A stretch of DNA of 64,000 nucleotides from Promethearchaeota archaeon (GCA_019058365.1 JAHPZE010000009.1:1-64000); one strand, 5' to 3'; shown: positions 8,270 through 30,673, numbered from the stretch's first letter. A program made the numbers and translations. The notes: a model not told the origin generated them from the sequence alone.

Positions 8270-8971
8270 TTAATTTTTATTGCGTTCTTCAGATTCAGGT
8301 ACTTCTTTTAAGGATTCAATAATATTTATTATGTCTTCCGCAAGCTCATAGCGTTCAGCTCGATTCTTCTCTCGATTTAATCGTTTTTCTACACGCAAAG
8401 GAGTTCCAATCTTAACTTTTAGACCATCTCCAGTAAACATATTTAATATTTTAGTCTTTTCTGTAGAAATTGCTATTGGAATAATTGGAGCATCTCCCGC
8501 AATTGCGAACTTTATTATTGCAGCCATCGATTTTATCTGTACTTCACGATCATTTTTTGCTTCAGGTGTCATACCTACGAGATCACCTTTCTCATTTAAA
8601 ATTTCAAATACTTTTTCGATTGGTTCAGTATCTTCTTTATTTTCAGTTCCTCGAATCATTCCAAGACTCTTTAAAACTGGACCAGCAATTTGATGCTTCA
8701 TTAATTTTGGATCAAGCATAAAATGAATTTTTCTTCCTGAAACTTGAGCTATTATTAACATATCTCGGATTACATTCGGAGTGATTGTAGTTAAAATCGC
8801 TTTTCCTCTAAAGGGAATGTTTTCTTTCCCTTCAATTTTTAAATCCATGAGGACCTTAAAGAATAAACCGCTTAGTCCTTTTACAGCACCATAAAGCATA
8901 TCAAAAGCAATAATTTTTGGATTTAACTTATCTCCTTCATCCTTTATTTCTGTACTTGTACTTTCACTCAT
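8270..8971 (-). CDS. PlsC-family acyltransferase with degenerate catalytic motif
   Basis: IEGKENIP, TPEA, PIIPIAI and VKIGTP are present. HxxxxD is replaced by PNVIRD. Confidence 0.75.
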   Translation of the reverse strand: MSESTSTEIKDEGDKLNPKIIAFDMLYGAVKGLSGLFFKVLMDLKIEGKENIPFRGKAILTTITPNVIRDMLIIAQVSGRKIHFMLDPKLMKHQIAGPVLKSLGMIRGTENKEDTEPIEKVFEILNEKGDLVGMTPEAKNDREVQIKSMAAIIKFAIAGDAPIIPIAISTEKTKILNMFTGDGLKVKIGTPLRVEKRLNREKNRAERYELAEDIINIIESLKEVPESEERNKN

Positions 8972-8988
8972 TTTTTCATTACCTCTTA

Positions 8989-9183
8989 TTATAATTTATC
9001 TATAAAATCATTAACTTCTTCCATTTTTTTTTCATAATATTTTTTCAAATCATTTTCTGACACAAATGTAGGGATAACTTTTTCTGTATAAAGGTCAAAA
9101 ATCGTGCTTAGTTTAGTTTTATGTTTAATGGTTTCTAGGAATTCTTCTCCTAATTCTCTCAATTGTTTCAGAAATTCTGCCAT
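8989..9183 (-). CDS. Small acidic helical protein (~64 aa) inside the activase operon
   Basis: ATG at 9183 lies just after the activase stop, and the ORF ends 17 bp before the acyltransferase start. Confidence 0.6.
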   Translation of the reverse strand: MAEFLKQLRELGEEFLETIKHKTKLSTIFDLYTEKVIPTFVSENDLKKYYEKKMEEVNDFIDKL

Positions 9184-9187
9184 ATTA

Positions 9188-10210
9188 TTAAAATACCTCC
9201 CACTTTCCACATCTGCTGCCCCAACGAGCAATTACTTTATTTTCATCTTGAGGCATTTTAACTTGGACGATTTCGCAATTGTTAGGGCAATCCCCGCAGT
9301 GGAATGTTGATGTTTTGAATTCTATATCCCCTACATCAAGACCTCTGAATAAAGTCTCTGTAGGGTTATCTAAATAAAAATCTCTAACAAGGATTGCCAT
9401 ACCTAATGCTCCCATTAAAACATTATATTTCGGTACGATTACTTCACAACCCAAGTGTCTTTCAAAAGCTTGAATAATACCTTTATTATAGGATACTCCT
9501 CCTTGGAAAACTATTGGTTCGTTTAATTCCTTTCCCTTAGATAAATTATTCATATAATTTCTAACTAATGAATCACATAAGCCAGCTATAATGTCCTCTT
9601 TAGAATACCCTGCATTTTGTTTATGGATCATATCAGACTCAGCAAATACCGTACATCTTCCCGCGATGCTCACGGGATTTTTAGATTTCACAGCATAATC
9701 TCCAAACTGTTCAATCGGAATACCCAATCTAGATGCCTGATGATCAAGAAAAGAGCCAGTACCAGCAGCACATACTGAATTCATCGCAAAATCTACAATT
9801 ATACCATCACGCAAAATGATGATTTTAGAATCTTGTCCACCAATTTCTAAGATAGTACTTACATCAGGATACAAAGATTGAGTTGCGACTGCGTGTGCAA
9901 TAATTTCTGTTTTCGCAAGATCTCCCCCTACAATAGCTTTCGTTAAATATCTTGCTGAGCCAGTAGTTCCGCAACAACGTATTGCGTATTCTTGTAGTTC
10001 TTCACTTTGTTCGACTTTTTCTCTTAAATCTTCCATACCTGCCTTAGCAGAGTCGATAGGAGACCCTCTATTACGTAAGAATACACTTGTGAGGACATTA
10101 CCATCAAGATCCATTAAAACAAATTTACACGTAACACTTCCTATATCAATTCCAAGAAAAGCATCAAGTTTTCCGTCTTCTTTAGCTACGTCATCTGAAA
10201 CTTGTACCAT
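9188..10210 (-). CDS. Stand-alone acyl-CoA dehydratase activase (HgdC/BadF-type ASKHA ATPase, 4Fe-4S)
   Basis: GIDIGS, EIGGQDSK, MNSVCAAGTGSFL, RCTVFAESD and a C-terminal CxxCxxxC...RCG. Confidence 0.92.
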   Translation of the reverse strand: MVQVSDDVAKEDGKLDAFLGIDIGSVTCKFVLMDLDGNVLTSVFLRNRGSPIDSAKAGMEDLREKVEQSEELQEYAIRCCGTTGSARYLTKAIVGGDLAKTEIIAHAVATQSLYPDVSTILEIGGQDSKIIILRDGIIVDFAMNSVCAAGTGSFLDHQASRLGIPIEQFGDYAVKSKNPVSIAGRCTVFAESDMIHKQNAGYSKEDIIAGLCDSLVRNYMNNLSKGKELNEPIVFQGGVSYNKGIIQAFERHLGCEVIVPKYNVLMGALGMAILVRDFYLDNPTETLFRGLDVGDIEFKTSTFHCGDCPNNCEIVQVKMPQDENKVIARWGSRCGKWEVF

Positions 10211-10223
10211 AATTACACCTTTA

Positions 10224-11414
10224 TTATGTCTGAATTAATTGAATACACTCCTGAAAAAATTGTGATCCATTTGATCTATAAAAATTCATCTTATTATCTT
10301 CAAGTGAGATCTTTTCAAGCCCTAATTTATGCTTACGTCTTGATTCCATTAGATCTACAAATGCTTCTAATCTCGTCCTCATTCCCTCAGTACCAGAATG
10401 CTCATCAAAAGAGAAATATATAATCGGAAGATCATATAATTGCTTAAGTTTATTTGTAATAATAGTCCGCGCAGTTACTTCGGGCATACAAGTGAACGGG
10501 TAACAATGAACAGCCCCATCAAAACCACTTTTTGCACGATCTATGTATTCTCCTAGTACCCACTGGCATTCACCTCCAATATCCATAGGAACATAAGGTC
10601 TTGAAAGATGTTCTAACCATCTTCGATGAAAATTCAAATGGAATTTATGTGAAATCCAATCCCATAAACTTAAATTTTGATGGATCTCTACACCCATTTC
10701 TCCAAGCTTACGTCTAATATCTACATTAACATATGGTTCTAAGCTTATATGAATTTCACCAAATATAGCTACCCTTAAAGGAGTTCGAGTTTTGTCGATA
10801 TCAATTTTATTAAAATCTTCTTTAATTACTTTTTTGAAATTTCGTAGTTCTTTAAGAGTGTTAGCCTGATCAAGTTTATCTAAAACATTATTTAATACAT
10901 CAGTAGTATCTCCTTGATTTCGTTCATATGCTCGGAATAAACCTTCTGCAGTTTGAATATCTTGTAAAAGTTTTGCTTTCTTCAAGAAAAAAATCACTGC
11001 TTTTACGAATCTTGGATAAGCAAATAGACCACTTTTACCACTAATGTCTTGGAGAGTATTTACCCAATGAAATTCTAGTAAATCTGCTTGATCTAATGGA
11101 ATTATTCTCACATGTTTATAACCCATATCATGCAAAATACGTTCTTGTACCGCGTGATAAAAACCAAAACGACAAGGTCCACAATCTATAGCCATTACTA
11201 AAGTATCAGCCCCTTTTTTAATAGCGTTCACAAAATCTCCTAATGTTGCTTTAAATGGGAAGCATACAAACTCTGGACTATATTTTACGCCGACTTTGAT
11301 GGCTTCTCTATTAGTTGGATCAGGTAGGATCACTTTTATGGATGGATCTAAAACTTCGAACAATGTTTTAAACGCTACCCAATTGGGGCCCATATTCGGG
11401 AAGGAAAGAATCAT
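10224..11414 (-). CDS. PlsR/COG3581-like reductase subunit (2-hydroxyacyl-CoA dehydratase superfamily)
   Basis: PEFVCFPFK, GPCRFGFY, PFTCMPE and DEHSG...TRLEAF. Confidence 0.85.
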   Translation of the reverse strand: MILSFPNMGPNWVAFKTLFEVLDPSIKVILPDPTNREAIKVGVKYSPEFVCFPFKATLGDFVNAIKKGADTLVMAIDCGPCRFGFYHAVQERILHDMGYKHVRIIPLDQADLLEFHWVNTLQDISGKSGLFAYPRFVKAVIFFLKKAKLLQDIQTAEGLFRAYERNQGDTTDVLNNVLDKLDQANTLKELRNFKKVIKEDFNKIDIDKTRTPLRVAIFGEIHISLEPYVNVDIRRKLGEMGVEIHQNLSLWDWISHKFHLNFHRRWLEHLSRPYVPMDIGGECQWVLGEYIDRAKSGFDGAVHCYPFTCMPEVTARTIITNKLKQLYDLPIIYFSFDEHSGTEGMRTRLEAFVDLMESRRKHKLGLEKISLEDNKMNFYRSNGSQFFQECIQLIQT

Positions 11415-11452
11415 ATATAGTTGATCTCCTTAATCGTTTTTACTTTTGAACG

Positions 11453-11468
11453 ATTGATTATAATCAAT
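11453..11468. promoter_or_regulatory. Perfect 16-bp palindrome ATTGATTATAATCAAT, candidate operator
   Basis: Lies between a minus-strand TATA-like element (~11491-11499) and the 11414 start. Confidence 0.4.
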
Positions 11469-11751
11469 GATTATTAGTATTGACGTTTACTTAAATAAAT
11501 CTTTGTTTAAATAACAAAGCAAATAATAAAAATGTACCCATTATAAACAAATTATCAAAAGTATGAAATCTTTTATTAAAAATCTTTGTTTTGGTTAATA
11601 AATTTGAAGGGAACTGTTTTATTCTGTTTTACTTAATAAAGATTCAAGTAATAAATAATTGAAATTAAAAGATAAAAATATTAGGCTATTTTACTATTAG
11701 ATGATTACATAAGATTAGTTTTAAGTATTAATATTAATAGAAGGGAATCTA

Positions 11752-11979
11752 TTGAAAAAACAATTTAATATTGTCATAAAACAGGATGAGGACGGATACT
11801 ACATTGGTAGCGTCCCCGAATTGCCCGGTTGTCATACACAAGCAAAATCTTTAGATGAATTAAATAAAAGAATTGTTGAAGCGATAGAACTATATCTTGA
11901 AGTTGATAAAGATCGGATAAATAAGTCAATTAAATTCATTGGATTTCAAAAAGTTAGGGGTTCCTTTGAAGAAGCTTAA
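11752..11979 (+). CDS. hicB: HicB-family antitoxin (short form)
   Basis: DEDGYYIGSVPELPGCHTQAKSLDEL...EAIELYL. Confidence 0.9.
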   Translation: MKKQFNIVIKQDEDGYYIGSVPELPGCHTQAKSLDELNKRIVEAIELYLEVDKDRINKSIKFIGFQKVRGSFEEA

Positions 11980-12130
11980 CCCTATCGCTTCAGACAAATT
12001 AATCAAAATTCTTAAAAAGCGTGGATTTAAAGAGATCAGACAAAAAGGTTCACATAAATTTTTTCGCGATTCAGAAGGGAAAACTACTATACTTCCTTAT
12101 CATAAGGAGAGAAATGATTCAGGATATTAA
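11966..12130 (+). pseudogene. hicA: HicA-family toxin, C-terminally truncated
   Basis: LIKILKKRGF..RQKGSH...TILPYH is followed by an early stop. The TTG start overlaps the hicB end. Confidence 0.7.
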
Positions 12131-12475
12131 GAGTTTAACAATTAGACTTCCCCCTACGATAACTACTATCATAATTAATAAAATTATAAATAATATCGCT
12201 ATGCTTTGTGCTTGCAATGCTGCGGAATATTTAGCAAGTGCTTCATAGTACATTTTCTCGCCTTCGATAATATCATCTCCTAATCCCCCTGTAACTTCCC
12301 AAAATGTAATTTTTTCTGCCCACTGTCTGTTCTCATTCATTATATCTTTTTGGTTATCTATAATTATCTGTTTATTATTGATTTCAAATAAACTTAAAAT
12401 GATTAATATACCTGCGGTAAGTATTATCAAAAAACTTAACCCCAGAATTAATGGTTTTTTTCTAATCTCTTTCAT
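12119..12475 (-). CDS. Hypothetical 2-TM membrane protein
   Basis: 118 aa with N- and C-terminal hydrophobic helices. Confidence 0.6.
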   Translation of the reverse strand: MKEIRKKPLILGLSFLIILTAGILIILSLFEINNKQIIIDNQKDIMNENRQWAEKITFWEVTGGLGDDIIEGEKMYYEALAKYSAALQAQSIAILFIILLIMIVVIVGGSLIVKLLIS

Positions 12476-12727
12476 GTTTTACACTAAAGCTAATAATATA
12501 TATACATCGAGTGCATATGGTTGTAATAATTATTTAAGAATTGTTTGTTATTAATTTTATTTATCTTCAAGTTTATCATTTAGAATGGATTTTAAAGGCT
12601 GTAAAATGATTTCAAAAAGAAAACTGAATAATTTTGTTGACAAATGTTTTTATACATATTGTTTTACTAAATATATTGTTGATCAATCAACACTTAAATT
12701 AAAGAATTAAAGGAATGATGCTAAAGT

Positions 12728-13495
12728 TTGAGTTCTAAGTTAGAAAAAGAAAAAAAAAAAGGTAAAAAAGAAAAAAAGAAGAAGTTAATGGTTCAAGAAA
12801 TAAATGACGATACGGAAGTTCAGGAAATAACAAAAAAAAGTAATATTTTTTCTATGTTAAACAAGCTTGACGATATAGACAAGGCTAAGGGTCAATTGGA
12901 AGAGAATAAATTAAGAAAAGGTATAATCGAAAGTGAACAATTAGATAAAACAGAGAAAATAGAAGCTGAAAAGTTAGATTTTAATACAATCAGAAAAGAA
13001 ATAGAAAAATTAAATGAACTTAAAAATCGCTACTTTACTAAAGGAGAATATGATAAAGCCATTGAAATCTCTGAAAAAATAATTGTTATTGCATTCTCAA
13101 ATAAATTAAAGTCATTAGTAAATGAAGAGAATAAGTTTTTAAAGCTTATGCGAAATAAAAAAATTCAAGCAACTGCCAATACAGAAATTCTTGTAAAAGA
13201 TAAAGTGATAAATGCCATCAAGAAAGAACAAATAGAGAATCTTACTACTAAACAAGAAGAAGATCTAAAATTAGATTTAATAGAAGTTCAAGAAAACCAA
13301 AAATTAAAAGAAGAGAAATTAAAATTTAAAGAAGAAAAAGACAAATTTGAACATGAGAAACTAGAATTTGAAGAAGAAAAAGATAAATTTGAACAAGAGA
13401 AACTAAAATTTGAAGAGGAAAAAGAGGCTTTTAAATGGGAAAAACAAATGTTTGCAGAAGTAAAAAAATTTGAAAGAGACAAAGAGGCTCTTTAG
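12728..13495 (+). CDS. Charged coiled-coil protein with a TPR-like helix pair
   Basis: K/E-rich; YFTKGEYDKAIEISEK; C-terminal heptad repeats. Confidence 0.7.
   Translation: MSSKLEKEKKKGKKEKKKKLMVQEINDDTEVQEITKKSNIFSMLNKLDDIDKAKGQLEENKLRKGIIESEQLDKTEKIEAEKLDFNTIRKEIEKLNELKNRYFTKGEYDKAIEISEKIIVIAFSNKLKSLVNEENKFLKLMRNKKIQATANTEILVKDKVINAIKKEQIENLTTKQEEDLKLDLIEVQENQKLKEEKLKFKEEKDKFEHEKLEFEEEKDKFEQEKLKFEEEKEAFKWEKQMFAEVKKFERDKEAL
13313..13438 (+). repeat. Three imperfect 42-bp tandem repeats (EKLxFxEEKDKFEx)
   Basis: Units start at 13313, 13355 and 13397. Confidence 0.85.
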
Positions 13496-13558
13496 CTTAT
13501 TTTTTTAAGGTATTAATATACTAAAGAAATATTATTTTATAAAAACAATGCCTAATTA

Positions 13559-14443
13559 TTGTTTTTTAATATAGAATTATTAATGTCACAAGGATTAACA
13601 TTTATGTCATCTAGAATGAAAATTATATTTGGAGATTGGCGTTTAGGCAGAATTCTCATGTTTATTTTTATAACAAGTTCAGTTTCATTTGGGTTGGGAG
13701 GTTCACTGATAAATATTCTACTAGCAGGCTTAGTGGGAGCAACTTTATCAGCGGGGGGATTTTTCTTTGATTATCTTGGAGATTATAATAATGATCGTGA
13801 ATCTGGCTACTTAAAAAATCCTATAGCTAAAGGTAAATTATCTCCAAGAGGAGGTCTTATAATTATTATCTCGTGTTTTACTATGAGTAGTGTAACGTGT
13901 ATAATAATAAATCCTTGGGCACTTATCCCGTTAGTATGTTTAATAGGGGTTATTGGTGGCTTGGTACAAGGATTATTTGATTCTGCTCTCTTGCGTGCCT
14001 TCAGTTTAGGAATTCTTCAAGGATTCTATGTTCTGATTGGTGCTCTTTTTGCCTATAAATTTGAATTAAGTGTGATACTTTTAGCATTATTTCTGTTTTT
14101 TGCTATGACTGGAGCAAGAGTACTTGGAGACACAAGAGATCTCCCTTATGATCAGAAAATTGATACGAATACAATTCCTAAAAAATATGGAATTCAATGG
14201 GGGGGATACTTTCTTTTAATAAATGAATTAATAGCTTATATTATTGGAATAGTAATTTACTTACTAGGTTTATTTGGTATTGGGTACCTGATTTGCATGA
14301 TTAGTATTATTGTTATTGGGGTTCCATTAAATTTATTGTTTATTATTCGACCATCACCAAAAATAGCACGAACTATAAATGTATTATCTTTAGCTATTTT
14401 AGGCTCATTATTTGTATTAGCAATGTTTATAGGAAAGTTATAA
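13559..14443 (+). CDS. UbiA-family prenyltransferase
   Basis: DYLGDYNND...NPIAKG and GDTRDLPYD...TIPKKYG Asp-rich motifs; multi-TM. The true start may be a later Met. Confidence 0.85.
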   Translation: MFFNIELLMSQGLTFMSSRMKIIFGDWRLGRILMFIFITSSVSFGLGGSLINILLAGLVGATLSAGGFFFDYLGDYNNDRESGYLKNPIAKGKLSPRGGLIIIISCFTMSSVTCIIINPWALIPLVCLIGVIGGLVQGLFDSALLRAFSLGILQGFYVLIGALFAYKFELSVILLALFLFFAMTGARVLGDTRDLPYDQKIDTNTIPKKYGIQWGGYFLLINELIAYIIGIVIYLLGLFGIGYLICMISIIVIGVPLNLLFIIRPSPKIARTINVLSLAILGSLFVLAMFIGKL

Positions 14444-14514
14444 TTACCATGTTTTATACATTATTTAAATAGAAATAAAATAAGAAGAAAAATTCTTTTT
14501 ATGAATAACTCAAT

Positions 14515-15318
14515 TTATCCTTTATTTACATAATCCAGAAATGCTCTAACTACCATTTTAAATCTTGGATCGGGAACAACAGTTAGATGGTCTTTTCCTT
14601 GGATTTGGAAGTGACAAGCATTTGGTACCAATTGAGCTATTAATGTTTTATCTCCTGGAATAAAATCATCAGATCCTAAAACAGTTAAAATTGGTGTTTT
14701 TACTTTTTTAAAAGAAGTTTTTGATTGAGAAGGAGATCCTACCAAGTCAGGTGTTTCTTGAAAGGTTCCCGCCATGACTGCAGCTAAAGCATTTAGATCA
14801 TTACCACCAATTTCAGCAAATTGACGAAATCTACGAGCAATAGGATCTTTAATATGATCAATACTTTCTGCTTTAAATGCTTCTATTCTTAGAAGTGTAT
14901 TTTCCCTGTAAAGAGTTCTTTCTTTTTCATTTTGAGGTAAATATAATACAAAACCTCCTAATATAGCTGATATAAAAAGTTCTGGTTTTTGTAATAATAA
15001 CTGGGATGTAATTAATGCTCCCATAGAATACCCAAAGAAATTGGCTTTTCCAATTGATAAATTTTCCATCAGAATAATAACATCACTTATCATTTTGTCA
15101 TGTCCATAAAAAGAATCTTCATGTGGTTTATCACTTTTTCCATGACCACGGCAATCTAAAAGAATTAAACGATAGTTATCTTTTAATGTGCTTATCCATT
15201 TTGTGTGTTTCCAATTCTGTTCTATATTTGAAGCAAAACCATGAATCATTAATATAGGCGGACCTTCACCTACAGTTTCATAATATATATTAACTCCATC
15301 ATTATTGAAATAAGGCAT
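14515..15318 (-). CDS. Alpha/beta hydrolase
   Basis: HGF, DCRGHGKS, GYSMG nucleophile, late Asp and His. Confidence 0.92.
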   Translation of the reverse strand: MPYFNNDGVNIYYETVGEGPPILMIHGFASNIEQNWKHTKWISTLKDNYRLILLDCRGHGKSDKPHEDSFYGHDKMISDVIILMENLSIGKANFFGYSMGALITSQLLLQKPELFISAILGGFVLYLPQNEKERTLYRENTLLRIEAFKAESIDHIKDPIARRFRQFAEIGGNDLNALAAVMAGTFQETPDLVGSPSQSKTSFKKVKTPILTVLGSDDFIPGDKTLIAQLVPNACHFQIQGKDHLTVVPDPRFKMVVRAFLDYVNKG

Positions 15319-15350
15319 TTAGATATTTCACCTCTTAATCTAATTTAATA

Positions 15351-15626
15351 TTATTCTCTTACCCTTTTCAATTCAATTTTCACAGCATTAGTTCTATCTG
15401 GGCATTCAAGTTCCATTACATCAGGATCTTCGACCCATGTAGCAGGAAATTCTCCTCCAAATTGAAGCATCATAAGATTAGGAAATATATCATGGTAAAA
15501 AAATCCACACAATCCTCCTGAGTCATGGCAATCTAACTCTATTTCATCTCCTACTTTATGATTTTTATTACAAAATCCTTTTACTTCTTTTATAGTTCCA
15601 ATAATTTGAAATCCTACTCGTGGCAT
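15351..15626 (-). CDS. TIGR04076-family Cys-rich protein
   Basis: KGFC...HKVGD, GLC, and CPD..NAVKIEL. Confidence 0.75.
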   Translation of the reverse strand: MPRVGFQIIGTIKEVKGFCNKNHKVGDEIELDCHDSGGLCGFFYHDIFPNLMMLQFGGEFPATWVEDPDVMELECPDRTNAVKIELKRVRE

Positions 15627-15740
15627 ACTTATAACCTTTTCAAAATCTAATTTTAAATATTTGAAGGTTTTATTATATTTATTGTTATTTTACAATTAAT
15701 TTAAGTTAATTCGTATACTTTATCATTTAAAGCGATATCA

Positions 15741-17231
15741 ATGGTAAATTTAGCAGATCTAGAACAACCTCATGTTTTCTGGGAATATTTTTTACAAATA
15801 TTAGAAATTCCTAGGTGTAGTCGAAATGAAGAAAAAATAAGAAATTTTATTAAAAAAGAAGCAGAAAATTTTGGGTTTAATTCAAAAATCGATGACATAG
15901 GAAATATTGCTGTAAAGATTCCCGCTATTAATCAAAAACTAAATTGTGTTTTACAGTGCCATATGGATATGGTATGTGAGAAGAATGAGGATGTTATTCA
16001 TGACTTCTCAAAAGATCCTTTAAAACCTAAAATAATCGATATTGAAGGTGAAAAATGGATTACAGCAGAAGGAACTACTTTAGGTGCAGATAACGGTGTA
16101 GGAGTATGCTTTCTCTTAACTCTTATGAAAAAAATTCACAACAACGAGTTAAAGTTCGATACAATAGGTTTAGATTTATTGTTTACTGTTCGTGAAGAAT
16201 ATGATATGGGTGGGGCAAAAAATGTTGATCCGAATCTTGTTCACGGAAATTACCTAATCAATCTTGATTCTGGTCAAAAAGCGATTACAATCGGATGCAC
16301 AGGGGGCATTGGATTTCATACAAGAATAAAAAAAAAATCTATTTTAATAGATCGAGGAAAATTAAAACTCTCCCCCATAAAACTTTCCATTTCTGGATTA
16401 TGTGGTGGACATTCTGGAAGATGCAATGAAGGCCAAGCCCATGCAATTAGTATATTATCTCAAATCCTTTGGAAATTGAATAAAAAGTATAAAATCCATG
16501 TTAATTCTATAAATGGAGGAGGTGCTGCTAACGCAATACCTAGAGAAGCGAACTCAGCTTTTTTTATTAAAGAAGACCAGTTTGAAGAAATCAAATTATA
16601 TTTATTAGAGATTTTCAAAGAAATTAAAAAACTTTTTAACGGAATCGAAATGGATATTGATATTACGATCGACAAAATAAAAGACTTTACGAGTAATGAA
16701 ACTTTCTCAAAAGAAGTTCAAAATAAATTACTCGATCTTTTATATATCTTCCCTAATGGTCCGATTGCATTCCATCCTAAAATAAAAGACTTGATGTTTA
16801 CTTCAACAAATTTAGGTAAAATAAGGACAAAAGAAGATCACATTAAAATTAGATGGCTCCATCGAAGCTTAAGCAGCTATTATAATAATGATATTTATGA
16901 ACAAGTTTTAGAATTATTAAATCTTTCAGGTCTAGAGATGGAACATAAGTACCGTGGAAGTTATCCTCCTTGGGAACCAAATTTTAATTCTAAACTCCTG
17001 AAAATCGCTAAAGAAGCCTATAAAGATGTAAATAATGAAGATGCAGAAATGAGAATTATTCATGGTGGATTAGAAGCTACATTATTAATCGATAAAATCT
17101 CTGGAATTGAAGCAATAGCTTTCGGTGCCAATTCTAAAGGACTTCACTCTCCAGATGAGCGGTTAGAAATTAAATCAGTAGAAACAACTTGGAATTTTCT
17201 CATACATCTACTTAAGAAAATGGATACATAA
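15741..17231 (+). CDS. pepD: Aminoacyl-histidine dipeptidase (M20C)
   Basis: HMDMVCEK, TTLGADNG, GGHSG, IHGGLE and HSPDE. Confidence 0.92.
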   Translation: MVNLADLEQPHVFWEYFLQILEIPRCSRNEEKIRNFIKKEAENFGFNSKIDDIGNIAVKIPAINQKLNCVLQCHMDMVCEKNEDVIHDFSKDPLKPKIIDIEGEKWITAEGTTLGADNGVGVCFLLTLMKKIHNNELKFDTIGLDLLFTVREEYDMGGAKNVDPNLVHGNYLINLDSGQKAITIGCTGGIGFHTRIKKKSILIDRGKLKLSPIKLSISGLCGGHSGRCNEGQAHAISILSQILWKLNKKYKIHVNSINGGGAANAIPREANSAFFIKEDQFEEIKLYLLEIFKEIKKLFNGIEMDIDITIDKIKDFTSNETFSKEVQNKLLDLLYIFPNGPIAFHPKIKDLMFTSTNLGKIRTKEDHIKIRWLHRSLSSYYNNDIYEQVLELLNLSGLEMEHKYRGSYPPWEPNFNSKLLKIAKEAYKDVNNEDAEMRIIHGGLEATLLIDKISGIEAIAFGANSKGLHSPDERLEIKSVETTWNFLIHLLKKMDT

Positions 17232-17244
17232 TAAGGAATGTATC

Positions 17245-17967
17245 ATGGAAGATATCTCTAAGATTGCTATTATATCAGATATTCATGCAAATAAATATGC
17301 TTTAAACAGATTTCTTCATTACATAGAAGAAAACTATCAAGCTGAAAAAATTTTGAACTTAGGAGATTTCGTTCACATTGGTCCGCACCCCAAGGAAGTA
17401 GCGCAAATTATTTTCAGCGATAACAGATTCGAAAATATTATTGGTAATAATGAAATGATTATTCTGGGAAGACATGAGGCTCCTCAGAGCGTAGAGTCCC
17501 ATAGTACTTGGACAATAAATCAACTTGGAAAAGATCTTATGGCAAAAATACAAAACACACCTACTTCTAAAACATTTATTATTAATGGGAAAAAAATTTT
17601 AATGCTCCATTCACATTTTTATGATATCCCAGGTCGATCAGTTCAAGATAATCTTTTAATCTACCAAGGAAAAACTCTGGAAGAATTTTTAAATGACTAT
17701 CCTAAAGATGTAGATATAGTTTTAGTAGGGCACTCTCACGAACAATTATATATTTCATGGGAAGGGAAGAAAATCATAAATCCTGGCTCGATTAGCATTA
17801 ATTGGGCACCAAAAGTCTCCTTTTGTTTAATGGACCTTGATTCAGAAAACATGAATATAGCATTTAAAAATATCCCGTATGATACTTCAAAATTAAAAGA
17901 AGATTATAATCAGCGAAATGTTCCGCACCGAGAATTTTTAATGAAATATTTTTATCCTTTTCTCTAA
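17245..17967 (+). CDS. Calcineurin-like metallophosphoesterase
   Basis: SDIHAN, LGD, GNNE, GHSH and NPGS. Confidence 0.9.
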   Translation: MEDISKIAIISDIHANKYALNRFLHYIEENYQAEKILNLGDFVHIGPHPKEVAQIIFSDNRFENIIGNNEMIILGRHEAPQSVESHSTWTINQLGKDLMAKIQNTPTSKTFIINGKKILMLHSHFYDIPGRSVQDNLLIYQGKTLEEFLNDYPKDVDIVLVGHSHEQLYISWEGKKIINPGSISINWAPKVSFCLMDLDSENMNIAFKNIPYDTSKLKEDYNQRNVPHREFLMKYFYPFL

Positions 17968-18008
17968 TAATGGAAAATCTTTTTTTTACTCTATTTCTCT
18001 AAATTAAT

Positions 18009-18515
18009 ATGGAAATCATAAATCGTGAATTAATTGATTTTAAAGAAAGAAAATTTCCAGAAGAAATCTGTTTTAGGCCAATAGGTATTATTCACACACC
18101 ATTCAAGAAACTTAAAGGCATCCCAATTCAATCATCAATGTCAGATATAAAAGGGATAATTGAGATTTTTCATGAATATCAATTAGGTCTAAAAGATCTT
18201 CAAGGATTTTCTCATCTTTACTGCTTATATTTTTTTGATATGGTAAAACTGCCTGTTCCTCTTCAGTCAAAACCTTTTTTAGATAATGAAGTGAAAGGAG
18301 TGTTCGCTATTCGAACACCATTCCGACCTAATCCTATTGGGCTTTCAATCCTCGAGATAAATGGGATTAAAGAGAATAAGATTGAAGTCAATAATGTTGA
18401 TATTTTAGATGAAACTCCTATACTGGATATAAAACCATATGCTTCACAATTTGATAATTTTAAAACAACTAAAATTGGCTGGCTCAAAGGGAAAATAAAG
18501 AAAAAAATTAGCTAA
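18009..18515 (+). CDS. trmO: tRNA m6t6A37 methyltransferase TrmO/TsaA
   Basis: PIGIIHTPF, GVFAIRTPFRPNPIGLS and TPILDIKPY. Confidence 0.9.
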   Translation: MEIINRELIDFKERKFPEEICFRPIGIIHTPFKKLKGIPIQSSMSDIKGIIEIFHEYQLGLKDLQGFSHLYCLYFFDMVKLPVPLQSKPFLDNEVKGVFAIRTPFRPNPIGLSILEINGIKENKIEVNNVDILDETPILDIKPYASQFDNFKTTKIGWLKGKIKKKIS

Positions 18516-18517
18516 TA

Positions 18518-19930
18518 TTAATTGTTAGTTAATTGTTCGTTCTTGTTTTTACGAAATCTCTTAGCTTGAATGGCAATGGTTTCAAGAAGTCTGCGTTGAT
18601 TTGTTGATATCCAAGGACCTTCACAATCTATCGCGGCATATGGAATATCACTTTTGTTTGCTAAAGGACGAATAATCGCTTGTGAGTTCATTGCTGGTTG
18701 ACAATTAAAAGTTCCTAAATTTATCAGACAATCATAAATACCTACCTTAATAGAATGCAAAAATCTTCCAGTTATTACTGGTGTTTCACTTAGACTATTT
18801 GAAGACACATATTTATTTCCCTCTTCAAAAAGATCAATAAAATCTATAAATGGGTCAAACATTAATCCTGATTTTTTCATAATTCTTTTGAAAATTTTAC
18901 ATTGTGAATTCAAGAAATTTAAAGCACTTCTATTTCGCTTTGCCCTGAAAGCATCCCTACGATCATTTTCATCTAAAGAATTAAATTCAAGTAATTGTTC
19001 ATCAAATTGTTCTTTTGGGGTGATAAATCCCTTTTTGAATCCGTATCTTATTGTACTTTCAGCTAAAATTAAACTCATAGACTCAACTATATCAACGACT
19101 TTCGTAATAATACCTCTCTCAAGAAAAAATTCTTCAATTGGATAATGATCAAACATTAAATTTAAACCCCCAAAAATTAATATTTTTGGGGTTTCCTCAA
19201 CTTTTGCTTTAAGAGGTATTTTTGAGATTTCTTTTGCCCATATTATTAAGCCAGTATTTAGTGATTTCGTTCCTTTCTTAATGTTATTAATAAAATCACT
19301 TGTTATATCTTCAAATAATTCCAAAGCTCTAATTTTGTTTTCAGCAACACAGTGTAAAGCATTTTTTGCTTCGATAATATATTGTCCTAAGATAAAATTA
19401 ATGTTCTCCCATGCTAATAGATCGCGATTCAACCCTAAATAATTATTAGTATATTTAGGGAAAGCACAAAAAATTACATTCTTAAAATTTAACCTTTTTG
19501 CAAAAGTATCCCAAAGAACGGGCCATGCTCCATTCTGACATGGACCGTGGTTATCTATTGGAGTTCGATATATGGTGATTTCATTTTCGTCTCTATTTTC
19601 ATTAAGATCCTTTAAAACTGCCCCTGCTATAGCAACACTAGCAAGGCATTCTCTTCCAGAACAGAATCTTTTAGCATATTGTAAAACTGATGCATCAGTT
19701 TCCTTGCTGATTCTAATATTACAATTATATTTTTTGAATAAATCTATTACAAGTCGTCTCCCATAAGGATTACGGGGTTCTGGGTCGACATATACTATTC
19801 TTGGATTGCTAAAGTCAATTTTTTGGTTATCGCTATCAATAATGTATTTATGATTTTCGGAAAATCGAGCTTGTCTTACAAAATTTTCTTTTTCAGTTTT
19901 AAGATTATTAGATTGGTTTATTTCGGTCAT
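18518..19930 (-). CDS. PlsR-like reductase subunit (Red2)
   Basis: CSGRECL, GPCQNG, FNCQP and DCEG; directly follows the PlsA-like gene. Confidence 0.75.
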   Translation of the reverse strand: MTEINQSNNLKTEKENFVRQARFSENHKYIIDSDNQKIDFSNPRIVYVDPEPRNPYGRRLVIDLFKKYNCNIRISKETDASVLQYAKRFCSGRECLASVAIAGAVLKDLNENRDENEITIYRTPIDNHGPCQNGAWPVLWDTFAKRLNFKNVIFCAFPKYTNNYLGLNRDLLAWENINFILGQYIIEAKNALHCVAENKIRALELFEDITSDFINNIKKGTKSLNTGLIIWAKEISKIPLKAKVEETPKILIFGGLNLMFDHYPIEEFFLERGIITKVVDIVESMSLILAESTIRYGFKKGFITPKEQFDEQLLEFNSLDENDRRDAFRAKRNRSALNFLNSQCKIFKRIMKKSGLMFDPFIDFIDLFEEGNKYVSSNSLSETPVITGRFLHSIKVGIYDCLINLGTFNCQPAMNSQAIIRPLANKSDIPYAAIDCEGPWISTNQRRLLETIAIQAKRFRKNKNEQLTNN

Positions 19931-19965
19931 TTTTTAGTCAGGTATGCTCTGATTTAATACATTTT

Positions 19966-22890
19966 TCAAATTTTTATTTTTTTTCGATGACGTTCTTCAA
20001 TAATATCCAGAAAAGCGCCCACCCGTGTTTCAAAACCAGCGTGGGCTGTATGAGAATCTATTTCAAGATAACAAAACGTGTGTCCTGCGAGTTGTTGTCG
20101 AAAATGGTGATACATAGTACCATCTGGGCCACAAGAAAAACAAGAAATGAAACATATGTATATGTTGGGGTACTTTTTTACATATTGAACCGCATTATTA
20201 ATCTCTTGAGTAAAATTCCATACATTTCTCTTATGTATAGCCCCATCATTTAAGGGTGGCAGCAAATCTGAAGGAATAGCATTATATCCTCTGCTAACAA
20301 TCTTACGAGGGAGTGCTATATTAACATTTGAAGGATATGCAACATAAGGTCTTCCCGCGATAATCACCGATGGTTTACGTAATAGATCTTTTATCATCTT
20401 TTTGCCAAATTCATCATATATTTTTCTGATCATTTTATAATGAGACAAGGCAATAAATCCTGCATTAATACCTACTTTAGTTTCTAACCCTAGCAAATTA
20501 GCAATTCGTCCAAACTCCTTCAAAGTCGTTTCGATAAGGTCTTCTGAGATAGCAATATGGGGTGTTAACATCTTTTCACCAATATTCTCAAAAGCTGCGC
20601 AGATTATATCTGGAATAGTTGTTGTAGAAGGACATGTATAACCATGAATGTAACCTTTTGGAACCTCCATTTCAATTACATGAGGTAAGAAAATATAATC
20701 AACATCACGATTAATAAGATCATTTACAGCTCCATGAACTAGTTCACAGGGATAGCATATAGGTGCTCTTGTTTTAGTATTACCAATTTTTGAAGGATTT
20801 GATAACACTACATTATAACCAAGCTCATTAATGAATTTAGTATATAATGGGAAGAGATTATGAGATGTTAAAGCCATAGGTAGCCCAATCGTACCAAGAG
20901 GATTCTTTAAAGGACGAGACCCAAATTCATCAAATATCATTTTGTTTCTAAATTCAACAAGATCATGACCTTCTTTTAATTTAACACCTTTTTGGCGTAA
21001 TAATTTATATTTAGAGCATAAACCACCAAATGGATAGACTTTACCTCTTATTGCAATTTTTTGAATTTCACAATTATTTTCACAGGCTTTACATCTAAAA
21101 GTATCTTTAACTTGTATTTCCCCTTTTATAAGACTTTCTAGCTTATATTTTTGTTCGGAGATAATTTTATTTTGTAAAAGATCTCTGGTCATAAGAGCAG
21201 TACCTACAGCTCCCATAAGTTCAGGATGTGCTGGTACAACAACATTTCGTTGTGAACGAGCTGCTATAGCTAATGCAACAGACTTATTGAGTGCAACACC
21301 CCCAAGAAAAAGTAAATTTTCACCTATTTGACGGGGACCTACAATTCGTGAAATATAATTATCAGCAATAGAATAAACTAAACCAGCAACAACATCTTCC
21401 GGATTTGCTCCTTGTTGAAGGGCGTTCCTTAAATCAGTATTGATAAATGCGGCACATCGTTCTCCAAATGCTATTGGATGAGCGCTTTTTAAAGCAAAAT
21501 CACTAATTTCTTCGACAGTTATCCCCATATCCACTGATGCAGATTCTTCAAGAAAACTTCCAGTTCCAGCTGAACAGCCTTCATTCATTGCATAATCAAT
21601 CGGGACACCTTTTAAAAACGAGATGAATTTTGAATCCTGACCTCCTATTTCAAATACGGTATCTACATTCGGAAGTTCTTCAGTGGCAGCTCTTGCATGT
21701 GCTAATATCTCATTAAAACTTCGACAATTATTTAAATAAACTGATACCATTTCTCTAGCTGAACCTGTGACCCCACATTGAATGATATTTATAGAATTTT
21801 CTCCAATTTGTTCCATAAGTTCATTTAGACAATGCTTAGTAGCTAATATTGGATTACCTAATGTTCGTAAATAAATACTTGCACCAATTGAATCGTCATT
21901 TGCATTAAATAACACAGCTTTTGTTGTAGTAGAACCTGCATCAATTCCGAGTATATATTTTTCTCCAGCTTCTATTTTCAATTTATTATCAGTACTTATA
22001 CGGTAATCTAAAAGAATTTCTGCTCTCTTGAGAGATTCATGAGTTTCAAATTCAACTTTCGAGGATTTAAACCTCTGATCATTTGTGATAAAGGATTCTG
22101 ATAACTCAGATGCAAATATTGATGCTCCAAATACTTCAAGATAAGGACTTTCAGGCAACATTTTAATTTCTGAATCCCTAAGAAAACTTGATAGATTCTC
22201 AATGAAGACTTTATTTAATGCAACTCCACCTGATATCACGATTAACCTTGTAGGCCATTGAGCGGATTCTATCATTTCACTAACTTTTCTTGCCAAATCA
22301 TAGATTAAAGTCTTTACTATATCTTCAGGTTTACATTCACCCTTATTGAGTTTATGAGTGGCATCGGATTTACAGTGAACAGAGCATCTTGTTGCCAATT
22401 GAGTGAAATTTCCTTTTAAGCTAGCTTCAATTCCTTCCTCGATAGACAATCCCATTCTTTGAAGTTGTTGGACAATGAATTCACCCGTACCAGCAGCACA
22501 TTTTGAGGTTGAAATAATGTTTTTTACAATACCATTTTTCATTGGATATACACTAAAAGTTTCTCCACCAAGTGAGAGGAGAATATCTGGCTTTAGATTA
22601 TAGAAGGATAATGCCTTTTCTAAGCATTCTACCTCTGAAATATATGGTAAATTAAGAAAAAAACTTGTAGCTTGACCAGTTATTACGATATTTGATTTAT
22701 TATCTACATTATATCGATCAAATATTTTTTTTATCTTTTCTCTCGGAGAACCCTCATGTCGTACAACCTCACTTAATATATGACCATTCTCCATTCTACG
22801 AACCCATTTTACTGAAACTGCACCAATCTCCAAGCCTTCAAAATATTGGATATTTTGTTTATTTATTCCAGAAAGACTCTCATTCAACAT
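19966..22890 (-). CDS. PlsA/Ger-like multidomain protein (two activase domains plus DUF2229 reductase)
   Basis: KCAAGTG/RCSVHC; GIDAGSTTTK, GGQDSK, MNEGCSAGTG, RCAAF; then CYPCEL, CPS, FSCGPD and DSH...TRVGAF. Confidence 0.88.
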   Translation of the reverse strand: MLNESLSGINKQNIQYFEGLEIGAVSVKWVRRMENGHILSEVVRHEGSPREKIKKIFDRYNVDNKSNIVITGQATSFFLNLPYISEVECLEKALSFYNLKPDILLSLGGETFSVYPMKNGIVKNIISTSKCAAGTGEFIVQQLQRMGLSIEEGIEASLKGNFTQLATRCSVHCKSDATHKLNKGECKPEDIVKTLIYDLARKVSEMIESAQWPTRLIVISGGVALNKVFIENLSSFLRDSEIKMLPESPYLEVFGASIFASELSESFITNDQRFKSSKVEFETHESLKRAEILLDYRISTDNKLKIEAGEKYILGIDAGSTTTKAVLFNANDDSIGASIYLRTLGNPILATKHCLNELMEQIGENSINIIQCGVTGSAREMVSVYLNNCRSFNEILAHARAATEELPNVDTVFEIGGQDSKFISFLKGVPIDYAMNEGCSAGTGSFLEESASVDMGITVEEISDFALKSAHPIAFGERCAAFINTDLRNALQQGANPEDVVAGLVYSIADNYISRIVGPRQIGENLLFLGGVALNKSVALAIAARSQRNVVVPAHPELMGAVGTALMTRDLLQNKIISEQKYKLESLIKGEIQVKDTFRCKACENNCEIQKIAIRGKVYPFGGLCSKYKLLRQKGVKLKEGHDLVEFRNKMIFDEFGSRPLKNPLGTIGLPMALTSHNLFPLYTKFINELGYNVVLSNPSKIGNTKTRAPICYPCELVHGAVNDLINRDVDYIFLPHVIEMEVPKGYIHGYTCPSTTTIPDIICAAFENIGEKMLTPHIAISEDLIETTLKEFGRIANLLGLETKVGINAGFIALSHYKMIRKIYDEFGKKMIKDLLRKPSVIIAGRPYVAYPSNVNIALPRKIVSRGYNAIPSDLLPPLNDGAIHKRNVWNFTQEINNAVQYVKKYPNIYICFISCFSCGPDGTMYHHFRQQLAGHTFCYLEIDSHTAHAGFETRVGAFLDIIEERHRKKIKI

Positions 22891-23199
22891 TCCGCATCAG
22901 CCGCATAATTTCAATAATGAAAATTTTACTTAGATATAGATTGATTTAAATAAATAAAGTAAAAAAATTATAGACATATATTTAAATATTATACCACAAA
23001 AAATAAGATTACTGATATTATTCCTTTAAGCTCATTAAATAATTGGCAAATACCAACTATTAGATAAATGCGGAATTTTTACCAGTAAACAATTTTTAAG
23101 CAAGATTAGTTATTAAAAAAGTTATTACTTTTTAATAAAAAAAATGAATGAAGGTTTATTCAATTAAAAAAGTGAGAAAACAATTAAAATCTTAAAGGT

Positions 23200-24258
23200 T
23201 TATAAAGTTTTAATTGCAGTAATTTTTTTTGAATCCATTTCTAATTTCTTTTTCTTCCTTCTAACCATTTCAACAAAGCTTTCCACTCTTGTTAAAAGAC
23301 CTGCTTCTCCACTATGTTCATCCATTGTTATTTCAAGAAAAGGCAACCCCACAACCCTCATATCTCGCATGACTAATTCAGAGATGAGGCTATCTGGACC
23401 ACAAGCAAAACTTATAAGGAAAATAACTCCATCAATCTCGCCACGACCCTTAGTGAGAAAATATCTAATTGATTGCATTATTTCCTCTTCATGTCTCCAA
23501 TAATTTCTAAGACGTTTATTTATAATCACTGGTTCTTTGAATAGTGATTCTGGTAAATTTTCAATTGTTATAACTTCAACCCCTTGATCTTGTAGTTTTT
23601 TCTGGAAATCTAAATTAATAAAAGTATCGAAAATATTATAAGCATGCCCTAAAAGTAAGAATTTAATGTCACCCTTGTGCGTTCTCTTAGGTAAGGTAAA
23701 TGGACGATCTCTTTCCACTAACCGTAATGCGTGATTGACTGGAGCTCCATCTCGTAAAAATTTATGATATTCATCAAAATATTTTTGAGCCTCTCTATAT
23801 GCATTTAAAGATTGATTTTGAGTTCTCCCTAATTCATTTCCAAGCTCGATTGCGGATGTCGCTATTGGAAACTCCTTTACATTCACTTCAAAATTTAATA
23901 TCTTTGGCACTTCTGGTAAAATTTTGATAATATCTGGGAGCGATAAGGATTTAGGGCAGAAATAAGCATCTTTTATTTCTGCTACATATCTTGGAACAAA
24001 GATATAGTCCAAATCAGGATGTTCTCGAACTAATTTCAACACTTGACCATAATATATCTTTACAGGAATACAGAGTTCTCCAAATCCGTGTGTTACCCCT
24101 TCCTCAACTATCTTCTTATTAGTTGGTGGACTTAAAATGATCTCAACATCTAATTCTTCAAGTAATTTTTTCCAAAATGGAAAATACCTATAAAAATGAA
24201 GAGCTCTCGGAATTCCAACTTTTATTTTTTTTTTGCTTGGTTGCTCACGTGTTTCCAT
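23200..24258 (-). CDS. Stand-alone DUF2229/COG3580 reductase subunit (Red1)
   Basis: VGIPRAL, ELCIPVK, FCPK, SFACGPD and DEHSGEAGLLTRVESF. Confidence 0.88.
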   Translation of the reverse strand: METREQPSKKKIKVGIPRALHFYRYFPFWKKLLEELDVEIILSPPTNKKIVEEGVTHGFGELCIPVKIYYGQVLKLVREHPDLDYIFVPRYVAEIKDAYFCPKSLSLPDIIKILPEVPKILNFEVNVKEFPIATSAIELGNELGRTQNQSLNAYREAQKYFDEYHKFLRDGAPVNHALRLVERDRPFTLPKRTHKGDIKFLLLGHAYNIFDTFINLDFQKKLQDQGVEVITIENLPESLFKEPVIINKRLRNYWRHEEEIMQSIRYFLTKGRGEIDGVIFLISFACGPDSLISELVMRDMRVVGLPFLEITMDEHSGEAGLLTRVESFVEMVRRKKKKLEMDSKKITAIKTL

Positions 24259-24278
24259 TTATTTAGTTCCTCAATAAC

Positions 24279-25955
24279 TCATGCATCAGGGGTGTCATAC
24301 AGAAGTAAATCTCTGATCTGATCCATCATCTTTTCTGTTAATCTCTTAAGTTCATCGTAATCCGGCATTGGCTTACCCCAATACTTTTGATGATCCATGA
24401 ATGGGGGACCGCATTTGAGAATTTGGCCTTTATAAAACTTCAACATTTTCGCATGTTTAGGATAGGTGGCTTCTGTTCCCGTTATACCAATTGGGATAAT
24501 AGGTACTTGTGTTTCGATGGCCAATCGCATAGGACCAGTATGACCTTCTAAAAGCTGACCATGTCCAAGATTGGTAGTTCCTTCGGGGTATGTACAAACT
24601 ACTTCACCCTGCTCAAGAAGTTCTTTTGCATAAATGTAAGCGTCAACATCGTGTTCTCCTCGTTTTAAAGGGAACGCATGATGATTTCTAACCCAAGCAT
24701 TAACAAGTGGAATTTTAAATAGCGATTGTTTTGCCATCTGATACATTACACGTCGGGGTTCATGATGCATCATAGCTGCTGCCAGTATAAGTACATCCCA
24801 TTCAGAATTATGACTAGGACAAATAAGCGCAGCTCCTTCTGCTGGAATATATTTATCAAAATCAATTACTCTATATGGCATCATGAGATCTGACCAATTA
24901 CATACTAAATCTCCTGAGAAAGCTTGCACTGTGTTTTGAAATTTCTTCCTTACTCCAAACTCCTCTAAACTTCTTAAAAGAGCGTACCAAGAATCATCAA
25001 TGAGATTAAGAATACCTTTTCCTTGATCTTTCAAATAACTCATGAAATTAAATTTAGATTCCTTTTCAACTTTTTCGGGTGAACCAATTGAGAGTTCTTC
25101 AACCTTTTCTTTTCCATAGATATTTTCACGTAATTCCCAGACTGTAGTTCTCAACTCATCAGTCAATCTTCTTATATCTTCATATGAGATTGTATTAATA
25201 TCATAATCAGAATAATAAATTGGATCGCCAACACGTACTTTTACTTGAGTTGGTTTCATTACTAGGTTACCTTTAGGTAGAGCATTTCTCGAGCCAATTA
25301 CAGCCATCGGTACAATTGGTACTTGCATCTCAATAGCAAGCCTTACAGCTCCAGTTTTAAATTCCCCTAAAGTTCCATCTTTTGACCTTGTGGCTTCAGG
25401 GAATATCCCTACCCATTCACCTCCCAGGATCACTTCCTTCGCTTTTTCCCATCCTCGTTCGGGGTTTTCACGATCGACTTTAAACGCTCCAAGATTATTG
25501 AAAAGCGTCCTTACAATAGGCGTCTTAAAGTTATCCAATTTACTCATATAGCGAATTCTTCTATGACAAGCAGCTCCATAGAAGAATGGGTCTATATGTG
25601 ACTCGTGATTGCCTACCAGAATACCCGGACCCCATTCTGGAAAAATGTTCCCTTTCGGATACTCTGCTTTGAAGTTCCAGAATGTACGAGCAGCCCATTT
25701 AATGTAAATATAAGCAGCCCACCACTGTAAACGTCCTTCAATCTGTTTTAGGTCTAAACGTTTTATAATGTATCGATATAAATCGTTGAGTGGGTCGATT
25801 GGGTTATATTTTAAAATCTTATATGTCCAATCCTGATGTCGCTTTTCATATTTTAACTCTTCATGCATTTTCTCTTCAATACTCTTCTTGAGGTCGATAT
25901 CTCGGGCGATGTCCATACCTTTCTTCTCTACTTTTTCGAGTTCCATACTAATCAC
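24279..25955 (-). CDS. Tandem two-domain PlsC-family glycerolipid acyltransferase
   Basis: Domain 1 has NHESHID and FPEATRS. Domain 2 has SHNSEWD and YPEGTT. Confidence 0.9.
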   Translation of the reverse strand: MISMELEKVEKKGMDIARDIDLKKSIEEKMHEELKYEKRHQDWTYKILKYNPIDPLNDLYRYIIKRLDLKQIEGRLQWWAAYIYIKWAARTFWNFKAEYPKGNIFPEWGPGILVGNHESHIDPFFYGAACHRRIRYMSKLDNFKTPIVRTLFNNLGAFKVDRENPERGWEKAKEVILGGEWVGIFPEATRSKDGTLGEFKTGAVRLAIEMQVPIVPMAVIGSRNALPKGNLVMKPTQVKVRVGDPIYYSDYDINTISYEDIRRLTDELRTTVWELRENIYGKEKVEELSIGSPEKVEKESKFNFMSYLKDQGKGILNLIDDSWYALLRSLEEFGVRKKFQNTVQAFSGDLVCNWSDLMMPYRVIDFDKYIPAEGAALICPSHNSEWDVLILAAAMMHHEPRRVMYQMAKQSLFKIPLVNAWVRNHHAFPLKRGEHDVDAYIYAKELLEQGEVVCTYPEGTTNLGHGQLLEGHTGPMRLAIETQVPIIPIGITGTEATYPKHAKMLKFYKGQILKCGPPFMDHQKYWGKPMPDYDELKRLTEKMMDQIRDLLLYDTPDA

Positions 25956-30473: not shown

Positions 30474-30495
30474 TTTTTATTTTTTATTATATTAT

Positions 30496-30564
30496 ATGTA
30501 CCGATCATGTACCTATAATTAAAAAAGAAATATTCCTTTATAAATCTATGTACTGAATATGTAC
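30496..30564 (-). promoter_or_regulatory. Promoter with four ATGTAC boxes (two 11-bp-spaced pairs) flanking TTTATAAA
   Basis: ATGTAC (+ strand) at 30496, 30507, 30548 and 30559. TATA at 30537-30544. Confidence 0.7.
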
Positions 30565-30673
30565 ATATACGATAGAATAAGAGAAAAAAACTCCTAACCT
30601 TTAAAATTAAAATATTCAATACTTTTACAAATATGTATGAAATTAAATATCGAGGATAAATAAAAAGGAAATG

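Follow-up and report, generated by a model that had tools for sequence, protein, structure and literature searches.

A candidate ester-to-ether lipid operon of Lokiarchaeia and the insertion hotspot within it

Do Asgard archaea make fatty-acid-based or mixed lipids? This open question of eukaryogenesis is raised by a 64,000-nucleotide stretch of Promethearchaeota archaeon DNA (GCA_019058365.1, JAHPZE010000009.1:1-64000; the window), in which genes of the PlsC acyltransferase family lie close to two sets of PlsA/PlsR-type activase and reductase genes. The source genome belongs to Promethearchaeia (Lokiarchaeia). PlsC and PlsY of Lokiarchaeia have been published (PMC6737245, PMC6431249), as have homologs of Ger from Lokiarchaeia, including P. 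syntrophicum, and from Heimdallarchaeia, together with the idea of bacterial-type Asgard ether lipids (PMC13159169); according to a 2026 review, Asgard lipids still await characterisation (PMC12993045). A first-pass annotation of the window proposed that glycerol phosphate is acylated and the ester then reduced to a (vinyl) ether. Its seven open reading frames (ORFs) were recovered, all on the minus strand and with the domains described. Its division into set A (Act-Act-Red1 plus Red2) and a split set B also held, although a 64-amino-acid ORF and a HAD phosphatase gene had been overlooked (Table 1).

The best explanation for set B and its neighbours is a single ancestral lipid operon of Lokiarchaeia. 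In relatives, the genes follow the order HAD, plsC (twice), Red1B, Red2B, ActB, small ORF and His-less plsC. Of 80 related species loci, 73 had a plsC gene no more than 350 bp upstream of Red1B; in the window, the tandem plsC gene ends 20 bp from Red1B, as first annotated. Red1B directly adjoined Red2B in 12 of the 80 loci and also in other lokiarchaeial families. In these families, plsC was found near or upstream of Red1B in 16 of 19 loci, the three exceptions being contigs shorter than 9 kb. The operon was present in P. syntrophicum (QEE15036.1), which keeps a single catalytic plsC, in L. ossiferum (UYP46616.1) and Harpocratesius, where the second PlsC copy has lost its His, and in Helarchaeales, where three PlsC domains are fused into one protein. 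The Red1B orthologs formed a Lokiarchaeia-wide clade (31 rows) with a Shimodaira–Hasegawa-like approximate likelihood ratio (SH-aLRT) support of 99, and the ActB clade received 97. Since both clades broadly follow the host groups, inheritance from the class ancestor is indicated. The acyltransferase–reductase synteny, whose absence from relatives would have spoken against the first-pass annotation, is conserved class-wide. In the open-access literature, no paper was found that describes the operon, the small ORF, the His-less PlsC or the insertion hotspot treated below.

As a control, paralogous three-gene sets in the same lokiarchaeial genomes were inspected. They occurred without plsC and without the small ORF, so the plsC link is specific to the set B ortholog group. 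A profile search of the entire 4.74-Mb genome placed all three PF01553 matches in this locus, which argues that the clustering is not due to chance. Across 300 Asgard genomes, among which kin are not independent, every family with common DUF2229 also had PlsC or PlsY, and large families with little or no PlsC/PlsY (f12, 0/76; f17, 0/19) had no DUF2229. Neither plsC nor the small ORF was present in 16 loci from two Heimdallarchaeia families, and four other Asgard families had PlsC with little DUF2229; physical linkage of plsC to the reductase was therefore seen only in Lokiarchaeia. Two separate observations concern PlsY. The PlsY-family protein of the source genome (contig C15, L227:4539-5747) has 402 amino acids, about twice the usual length, and forms of 400-430 amino acids, some of them tandem, occur across family f1. 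In the Heimdallarchaeia family f32 (G241, G303, G249, G330 and others), 4-11 PlsY matches per genome were accompanied by several DUF2229 enzymes and no PlsC.

The individual gene products fit this grouping to different degrees. The tandem acyltransferase scored 163 bits with the TIGR00530 profile (cut-off 103), and its sole sequence match in the PDB was a PlsC, that of T. maritima (5kym; E 1.5e-14). Both of its domains carry HxxxxD (NHESHID and SHNSEWD) and an FPEG-type motif (motifs I and III), HxxxxD being present in 74/74 full-length copies of each domain. The HAD gene, encoding a candidate (lyso)phosphatidate phosphatase, adjoined the tandem plsC in 37 of the 59 related loci with room for it and was nearby in another 11. 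In the source genome, one inserted gene parts the two (26176-28590); its 804-amino-acid, secreted-looking product lacks a Pfam match, and the gene occurs singly or paired at the same site in several genomes of the genus. ActB is a stand-alone gene with one PF01869 domain in all orthologs, and its C-terminal four-Cys extension is also present in set A. The Fe-S Cys motifs of Act, Red1 and Red2 are intact in both sets and match those of the Listeria and Fusobacterium proteins.

An ORF of 57-91 amino acids follows the activase in operons of families f1, f2 and f3 and of Helarchaeales (29/30 f1 loci). The copy in the window, which had no Pfam or Atlas match, is a candidate accessory or membrane-anchor subunit. 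The final gene was present in 28/30 ActB loci and is strongly conserved. Its product, read earlier as a PlsC-family acyltransferase, does belong to that family by PF01553 and fold (best fold match, PlsC 5kym), but the catalytic His of HxxxxD was missing from 46/46 aligned copies. It is therefore probably no canonical acyltransferase, and a pseudo-enzyme or lipid-binding protein is probable.

Table 1. Features of the locus, with positions in the window
Feature	Position	Strand	Basis or remark
HAD-IA phosphatase (DxD motif)	28732..29475	-	NCBIfam HAD matches; usual first gene of the operon
Tandem two-domain PlsC/LPLAT acyltransferase	24279..25955	-	Pfam PF01553 x2; TIGR00530 above cut-off
Red1B, DUF2229 reductase subunit, set B	23200..24258	-	PF09989; invariant Cys 63, 101, 286
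Block splitting the operon, Red1B to Red2B	11415..23199	.	11.8 kb
Set A large subunit Act1-Act2-Red1 (PlsA/Ger-type architecture)	19966..22890	-	two PF01869 + PF09989
Set A Red2 (PlsR-position subunit)	18518..19930	-	after large subunit in lokiarchaeial loci and bacteria
Red2B, second reductase subunit, HAD/BCR-family fold, set B	10224..11414	-	partial PF09989, weak HGD-D match
ActB, single ASKHA-ATPase [4Fe-4S] activase, set B	9188..10210	-	one PF01869; TIGR00241; motifs; tree
64-amino-acid Cys-free conserved ORF	8989..9183	-	ATG at 9183; between activase and 8270-8971
PlsC-fold protein without catalytic His	8270..8971	-	PF01553 E 2.4e-9

To which enzyme family do the reductases belong? All 90 DUF2229-associated activase domains, among them ActB, both set A domains and a Listeria PlsA-type protein, were split from the HgdC/YjiL/BzdPQ activases by one long branch (SH-aLRT 100), the separation on which the first-pass annotation had made its case depend. 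Red1B and Red2B matched the Listeria protein (E 8e-22 and 7e-13), which was reported as a PlsA ortholog (PMC9702350). No sequence match of Red1B or Red2B to HGD-D dehydratase subunits was obtained; HGD-D matches in the domain scan were short and below the cut-off, and set A Red2 had none. A model of Red2B with a predicted local distance difference test score of 80.6 matched the folds of 2-hydroxyisocaproyl-CoA dehydratase, DCCP and BzdNO at 11-15% identity. Neither set grouped with the Listeria/Fusobacterium/Collinsella subclade in these trees, which did not contain validated PlsA sequences. The deep nodes are provisional because the trees were built in 'quick' mode with SH-aLRT only and contain long branches. 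The profile search of genome contigs returned Asgard-type loci only and hence no named bacterial PlsA or Ger, and the contexts of other Red1 representatives were for the most part too short to be informative. The PDB yielded no PlsA/Ger structure, and a predicted complex of Red1B, Red2B, small ORF and His-less PlsC scored 0.00 and was not used as evidence. Two further activase loci of the genome were noted: a pair resembling BzdPQ (contig C46:82350-84027; L003:6351-8028), which served as tree outgroup, and an HgdC-like activase that spans two consecutive ORFs, 130 and 129 amino acids long (contig C26:17708-18531; L004:5709-6532), possibly owing to a frameshift or assembly error.

The locus shares the modules PF01869, PF09989 and Red2 and their Cys motifs with PlsA/PlsR, known from C. 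perfringens (CPE1194-1195) and as single-gene PlsA from Enterococcus, Lactococcus and Listeria. The PlsA/PlsR architecture named in the first-pass annotation fits set A, with two PF01869 domains, PF09989 and then Red2 in the same two-gene layout, but not set B, which is divided among three genes, only one of them an activase, and shares its operon with PlsC, HAD and the small ORF. Set A also has the BBD core (two PF01869, one PF09989) of Ger from T. maritima (Tmari_0479) and D. alkenivorans (SHJ90043), which set B lacks and which is conserved in all alkyl-ether producers (PMC13159169). Judged by its domains, set A would qualify as both PlsA/PlsR- and Ger-like. It is about 28% identical to the Listeria and Fusobacterium proteins and falls in a different subclade; deltaproteobacterial and anammox (Scalindua) sequences share its own clade. 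Ger itself consists of a single fused polypeptide, in contrast to the two genes of set A and the three genes, with only one activase, of set B. Sequence does not distinguish Ger from PlsA, no motif diagnostic of saturated alkyl-ether formation being known (PMC13274423). Fused two-activase Ger-like genes (about 1420-1480 amino acids; L207-L209, L210-L212) also occur in L. ossiferum (three), Harpocratesius (two) and P. syntrophicum (one); they belong to different subclades, and none lies beside plsC.

Closest to set B in gene order and single activase are the Red1-Red2-Act sets of Bacillota (e.g. Monoglobus pectinilyticus; Act 53%, Red 31-32% identity) and Heimdallarchaeia; unlike set B, these lacked plsC, HAD and the small ORF at the loci inspected. 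HgdABC, HadBCI, DCCP and benzoyl-CoA reductase share the superfamily, fold and ATP-driven electron transfer, but their activases are on a separate branch and their subunits are PF06050, not PF09989. A similar grouping of functions, for which homology is not claimed, is said to exist in the myxobacterial elb ether-lipid cluster (Lorenzen et al. 2014), which reportedly combines acyltransferase, phosphatase-type and reductive functions, the acyl-reductase being a multidomain enzyme and not an ATP-driven Fe-S reductase.

How did set A come to lie within this operon? The junction between Red1B and Red2B is an insertion hotspot. Of 80 assemblies, 33 had a contig end within 1 kb on the downstream side of Red1B, compared with 4 on the upstream side; past Red1B, set A followed in 11 loci and another cassette in at least 11. 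In the window, the inserted block carries set A, TrmO, a metallophosphatase, a peptidase, a hydrolase, a UbiA-like gene and others. The UbiA-family prenyltransferase gene (13559-14443) was rejected as an operon member, there being no homolog in any related locus; it is an orphan that also lacks a homolog elsewhere in the genome, the true DGGGPS being on contig C34.

The large subunit of set A shares 66-70% identity with proteins from Abyssobacteria and Desulfobacterota-like bacteria. Its Red2 is 42-50% identical to the Red2 partners of the bacterial relatives, despite lacking a Pfam match, and follows the large subunit in 14/15 lokiarchaeial loci and also in bacteria, where it is separate or fused. 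Because the lokiarchaeial copies nest among bacterial proteins in the tree, set A is regarded as a gain from bacteria. It is not an ancestral part of the operon but a bacterial Ger-like enzyme that entered the Red1B/Red2B junction later. A very recent transfer was ruled out by a GC content at third codon positions (GC3) of 0.19-0.20 against a genome mean of 0.21; the gain is old enough for codon use to match the host. In five contexts, the bacterial relatives never adjoined plsC; their neighbours were unrelated or CoA-metabolism genes, including CoA-transferase III, acyl-CoA dehydrogenases, enoyl-CoA hydratase and AMP-binding ligases. The acyltransferase link applies to set B only. Set A may act as a second ester reductase, its role being less certain.

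The other cassette, found at the junction in many relatives, encodes paralogous Red1, Act and Red2, with Red1 fused to an FAD_binding_4 domain. This Red1 is itself a member of the Red1B clade, and Atlas placed the flavoprotein domain with Delta24-sterol-reductase-like proteins (0.97). Bacterial homologs of the flavoprotein adjoin S-adenosylmethionine methyltransferases, like the bfaAB pair, which reduces C=C bonds on phospholipid-bound acyl chains (PMC7791843). The FAD part is 93-98% identical between species, compared with about 80% for the resident Red1B of those species, and has a GC3 of 0.49 versus 0.21 genome-wide. In the source genome, the cassette lies on contig C12:94685-99706 (L001:8686-13707), between 47-bp direct repeats and followed by an N-terminal Red2B fragment. 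With its DHCR24/BfaA-like flavoprotein, the cassette is a candidate vinyl-ether reductase.

What, then, could the operon make? We give roughly even chances to acylglycerol assembly followed by ester-to-(vinyl)ether reduction by the set B operon. The two catalytic PlsC domains would put acyl chains on glycerol phosphate or a lyso-lipid, the donor probably being acyl-CoA from scavenged fatty acids, and the HAD enzyme may take off the phosphate. ActB would hydrolyse ATP and drive low-potential electrons from its [4Fe-4S] cluster into Red1B/Red2B, which would reduce the glycerol-bound ester carbonyl and dehydrate it to a vinyl ether, or carry the reduction on to an alkyl ether, in the manner of PlsA/PlsR and Ger. 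The 64-amino-acid ORF and the His-less PlsC might be accessory membrane or substrate-presenting parts. In the literature consulted, plasmalogen and alkyl-ether synthesis are the only demonstrated activities of DUF2229 enzymes (PMC13159169, PMC12838417). A GGR-GGGPS-DGGGPS cluster and CarS are present in the genome, so the product would come on top of the archaeal lipids, presumably as a minor non-isoprenoid or chimeric glycerolipid. FadD (33110-34864), once suggested as the acyl-CoA supplier, was discarded as a dedicated acyl donor: the genome has 21 homologs, and FadD was linked in only 4/59 related loci. Upstream of the operon (29691-34864), genes for a small Ras/Rab-like GTPase with a C-terminal extension, a PFL-like glycyl radical enzyme and an AMP-binding ligase are linked in some close relatives only.

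The ester-to-ether idea has the plsC linkage, the activase placement, the matches to the Listeria protein, the flavoprotein fusion in the Red1B clade and the co-occurrence of DUF2229 with PlsC or PlsY in its favour, but several observations weigh against it. The two-activase set A is unlinked to acyltransferases, while set B, a single-activase three-gene subfamily, falls outside the two-activase clade to which the tested PlsA/Ger enzymes, all with two activase domains (PMC13159169), would correspond. Its Red domains are 22-29% identical to two-activase Red domains, and its nearest named relative, Monoglobus (31-53% identity), has no lipid neighbours. Set B is accordingly classed as working like PlsA/Ger and not as a member of that group, in trees that did not contain the validated C. 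perfringens, T. maritima and D. alkenivorans sequences. The two Heimdallarchaeia families keep three-gene sets with PF01553 in 0/28 and 0/11 genomes, all of which have PlsY (28/28, 11/11). With its GGR-GGGPS-DGGGPS cluster and CarS, the organism can do without this route in making its membrane, and lipids of the P. syntrophicum co-culture were reported as phytane and biphytanes only (PMC11316595). Finally, PlsC folds also acylate non-glycerol acceptors (PatA, LpxM), and a LarA gene of the nickel racemase family, 2-hydroxyacid-racemase-like, lies inside one Helarchaeales operon (L052:11480-12862).

Some of these points would suit a reductase trio that acts on acyl-CoA, by 2-hydroxyacyl-CoA dehydration or thioester/enoyl reduction as in HgdABC and benzoyl-CoA reductase, and feeds the modified chain to PlsC, giving an ester lipid and no ether. 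The 2-hydroxyacyl-CoA dehydratase/benzoyl-CoA reductase fold of Red2B, the LarA gene and the CoA-metabolism neighbours of the bacterial set A relatives are all consistent with this. We nevertheless consider it unlikely: the fold match, at its low identity, is expected for PlsA too, the activases stand apart from the HgdC and Bzd types, HGD-D subunits gave no sequence match, and the other Helarchaeales operons, L217 and L218, have no LarA (L046 has a gene of the same size at that position). Somewhat less probable is a chimeric lipid, in which PlsC would acylate the free hydroxyl of geranylgeranylglyceryl phosphate and the reductase would convert the ester, yielding a mixed isoprenoid/n-alkyl glycerol diether. 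Chimeric lipids were proposed earlier for lokiarchaeial PlsC (PMC6737245); PlsY is patchy in Lokiarchaeia (f1, 40/68; f2, 2/7), and the one catalytic plsC of P. syntrophicum and the His-less second copy of Harpocratesius and L. ossiferum suit a single acylation step. Yet the source genome's family keeps two intact catalytic PlsC domains, the operon is unlinked to the GGGPS/DGGGPS cluster, and P. syntrophicum was reported to lack GGGP synthase (PMC11316595).

Marginally below that we rank a role outside the membrane phospholipids, namely remodelling or salvage of lipids from bacterial partners or necromass, or synthesis of a neutral storage lipid via HAD-derived diacylglycerol and then ether-linked or tri-acyl forms. 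The frequent adjacency of the HAD phosphatase, the 21 FadD-like ligases, the lack of a clear CdsA beyond CarS in the genome and the report of isoprenoid cores only in cultured Lokiarchaeia (PMC11316595) speak for it, and the recurrent acquisition of alternative reductase cassettes at a single site would suit adaptation to varied substrates. In the related loci examined, however, no lipase or transporter was conserved in the operon, and CarS with five CDP-alcohol transferases could process acyl phosphatidates; the idea is, moreover, compatible with ester-to-ether reduction rather than exclusive of it. Least probable, and in our view very unlikely, is that the acyltransferases use a non-glycerol acceptor (sugar, protein or cofactor) and that gene order was kept for a pathway other than membrane-lipid synthesis. 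The LPLAT fold does include PatA and LpxM, and Coleman et al. doubted a membrane-synthesis role of archaeal PlsC/PlsY (PMC6431249), but the tandem protein scores above the AGPAT cut-off of TIGR00530, retains motifs I and III and has PlsC as its only PDB sequence match.

Extending the ester-to-ether reading, we tentatively suggest, at less than even chances, that Lokiarchaeia have kept since their common ancestor a dedicated pathway that makes fatty-acyl or chimeric glycerolipids and, by means of a four-part, single-activase reductase, turns them into vinyl or alkyl ethers, and that the junction after Red1 is a slot for exchangeable cassettes, Ger-like set A or the DHCR24-fused type, that would change the ether product. 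Earlier work presented PlsC, PlsY and Ger homologs as scattered genes; here they appear as one vertically kept operon that is present in cultured strains, to which this locus adds the split operon state and the bacterial origin of set A. Because Lokiarchaeia alone, of the genomes searched, showed the linkage, the operon says little directly about the lineage ancestral to eukaryotes. It does point to genes for expression and to lipids worth seeking and, if the proposed activity is true, would assign a first function to the widespread single-activase three-gene DUF2229 sets.

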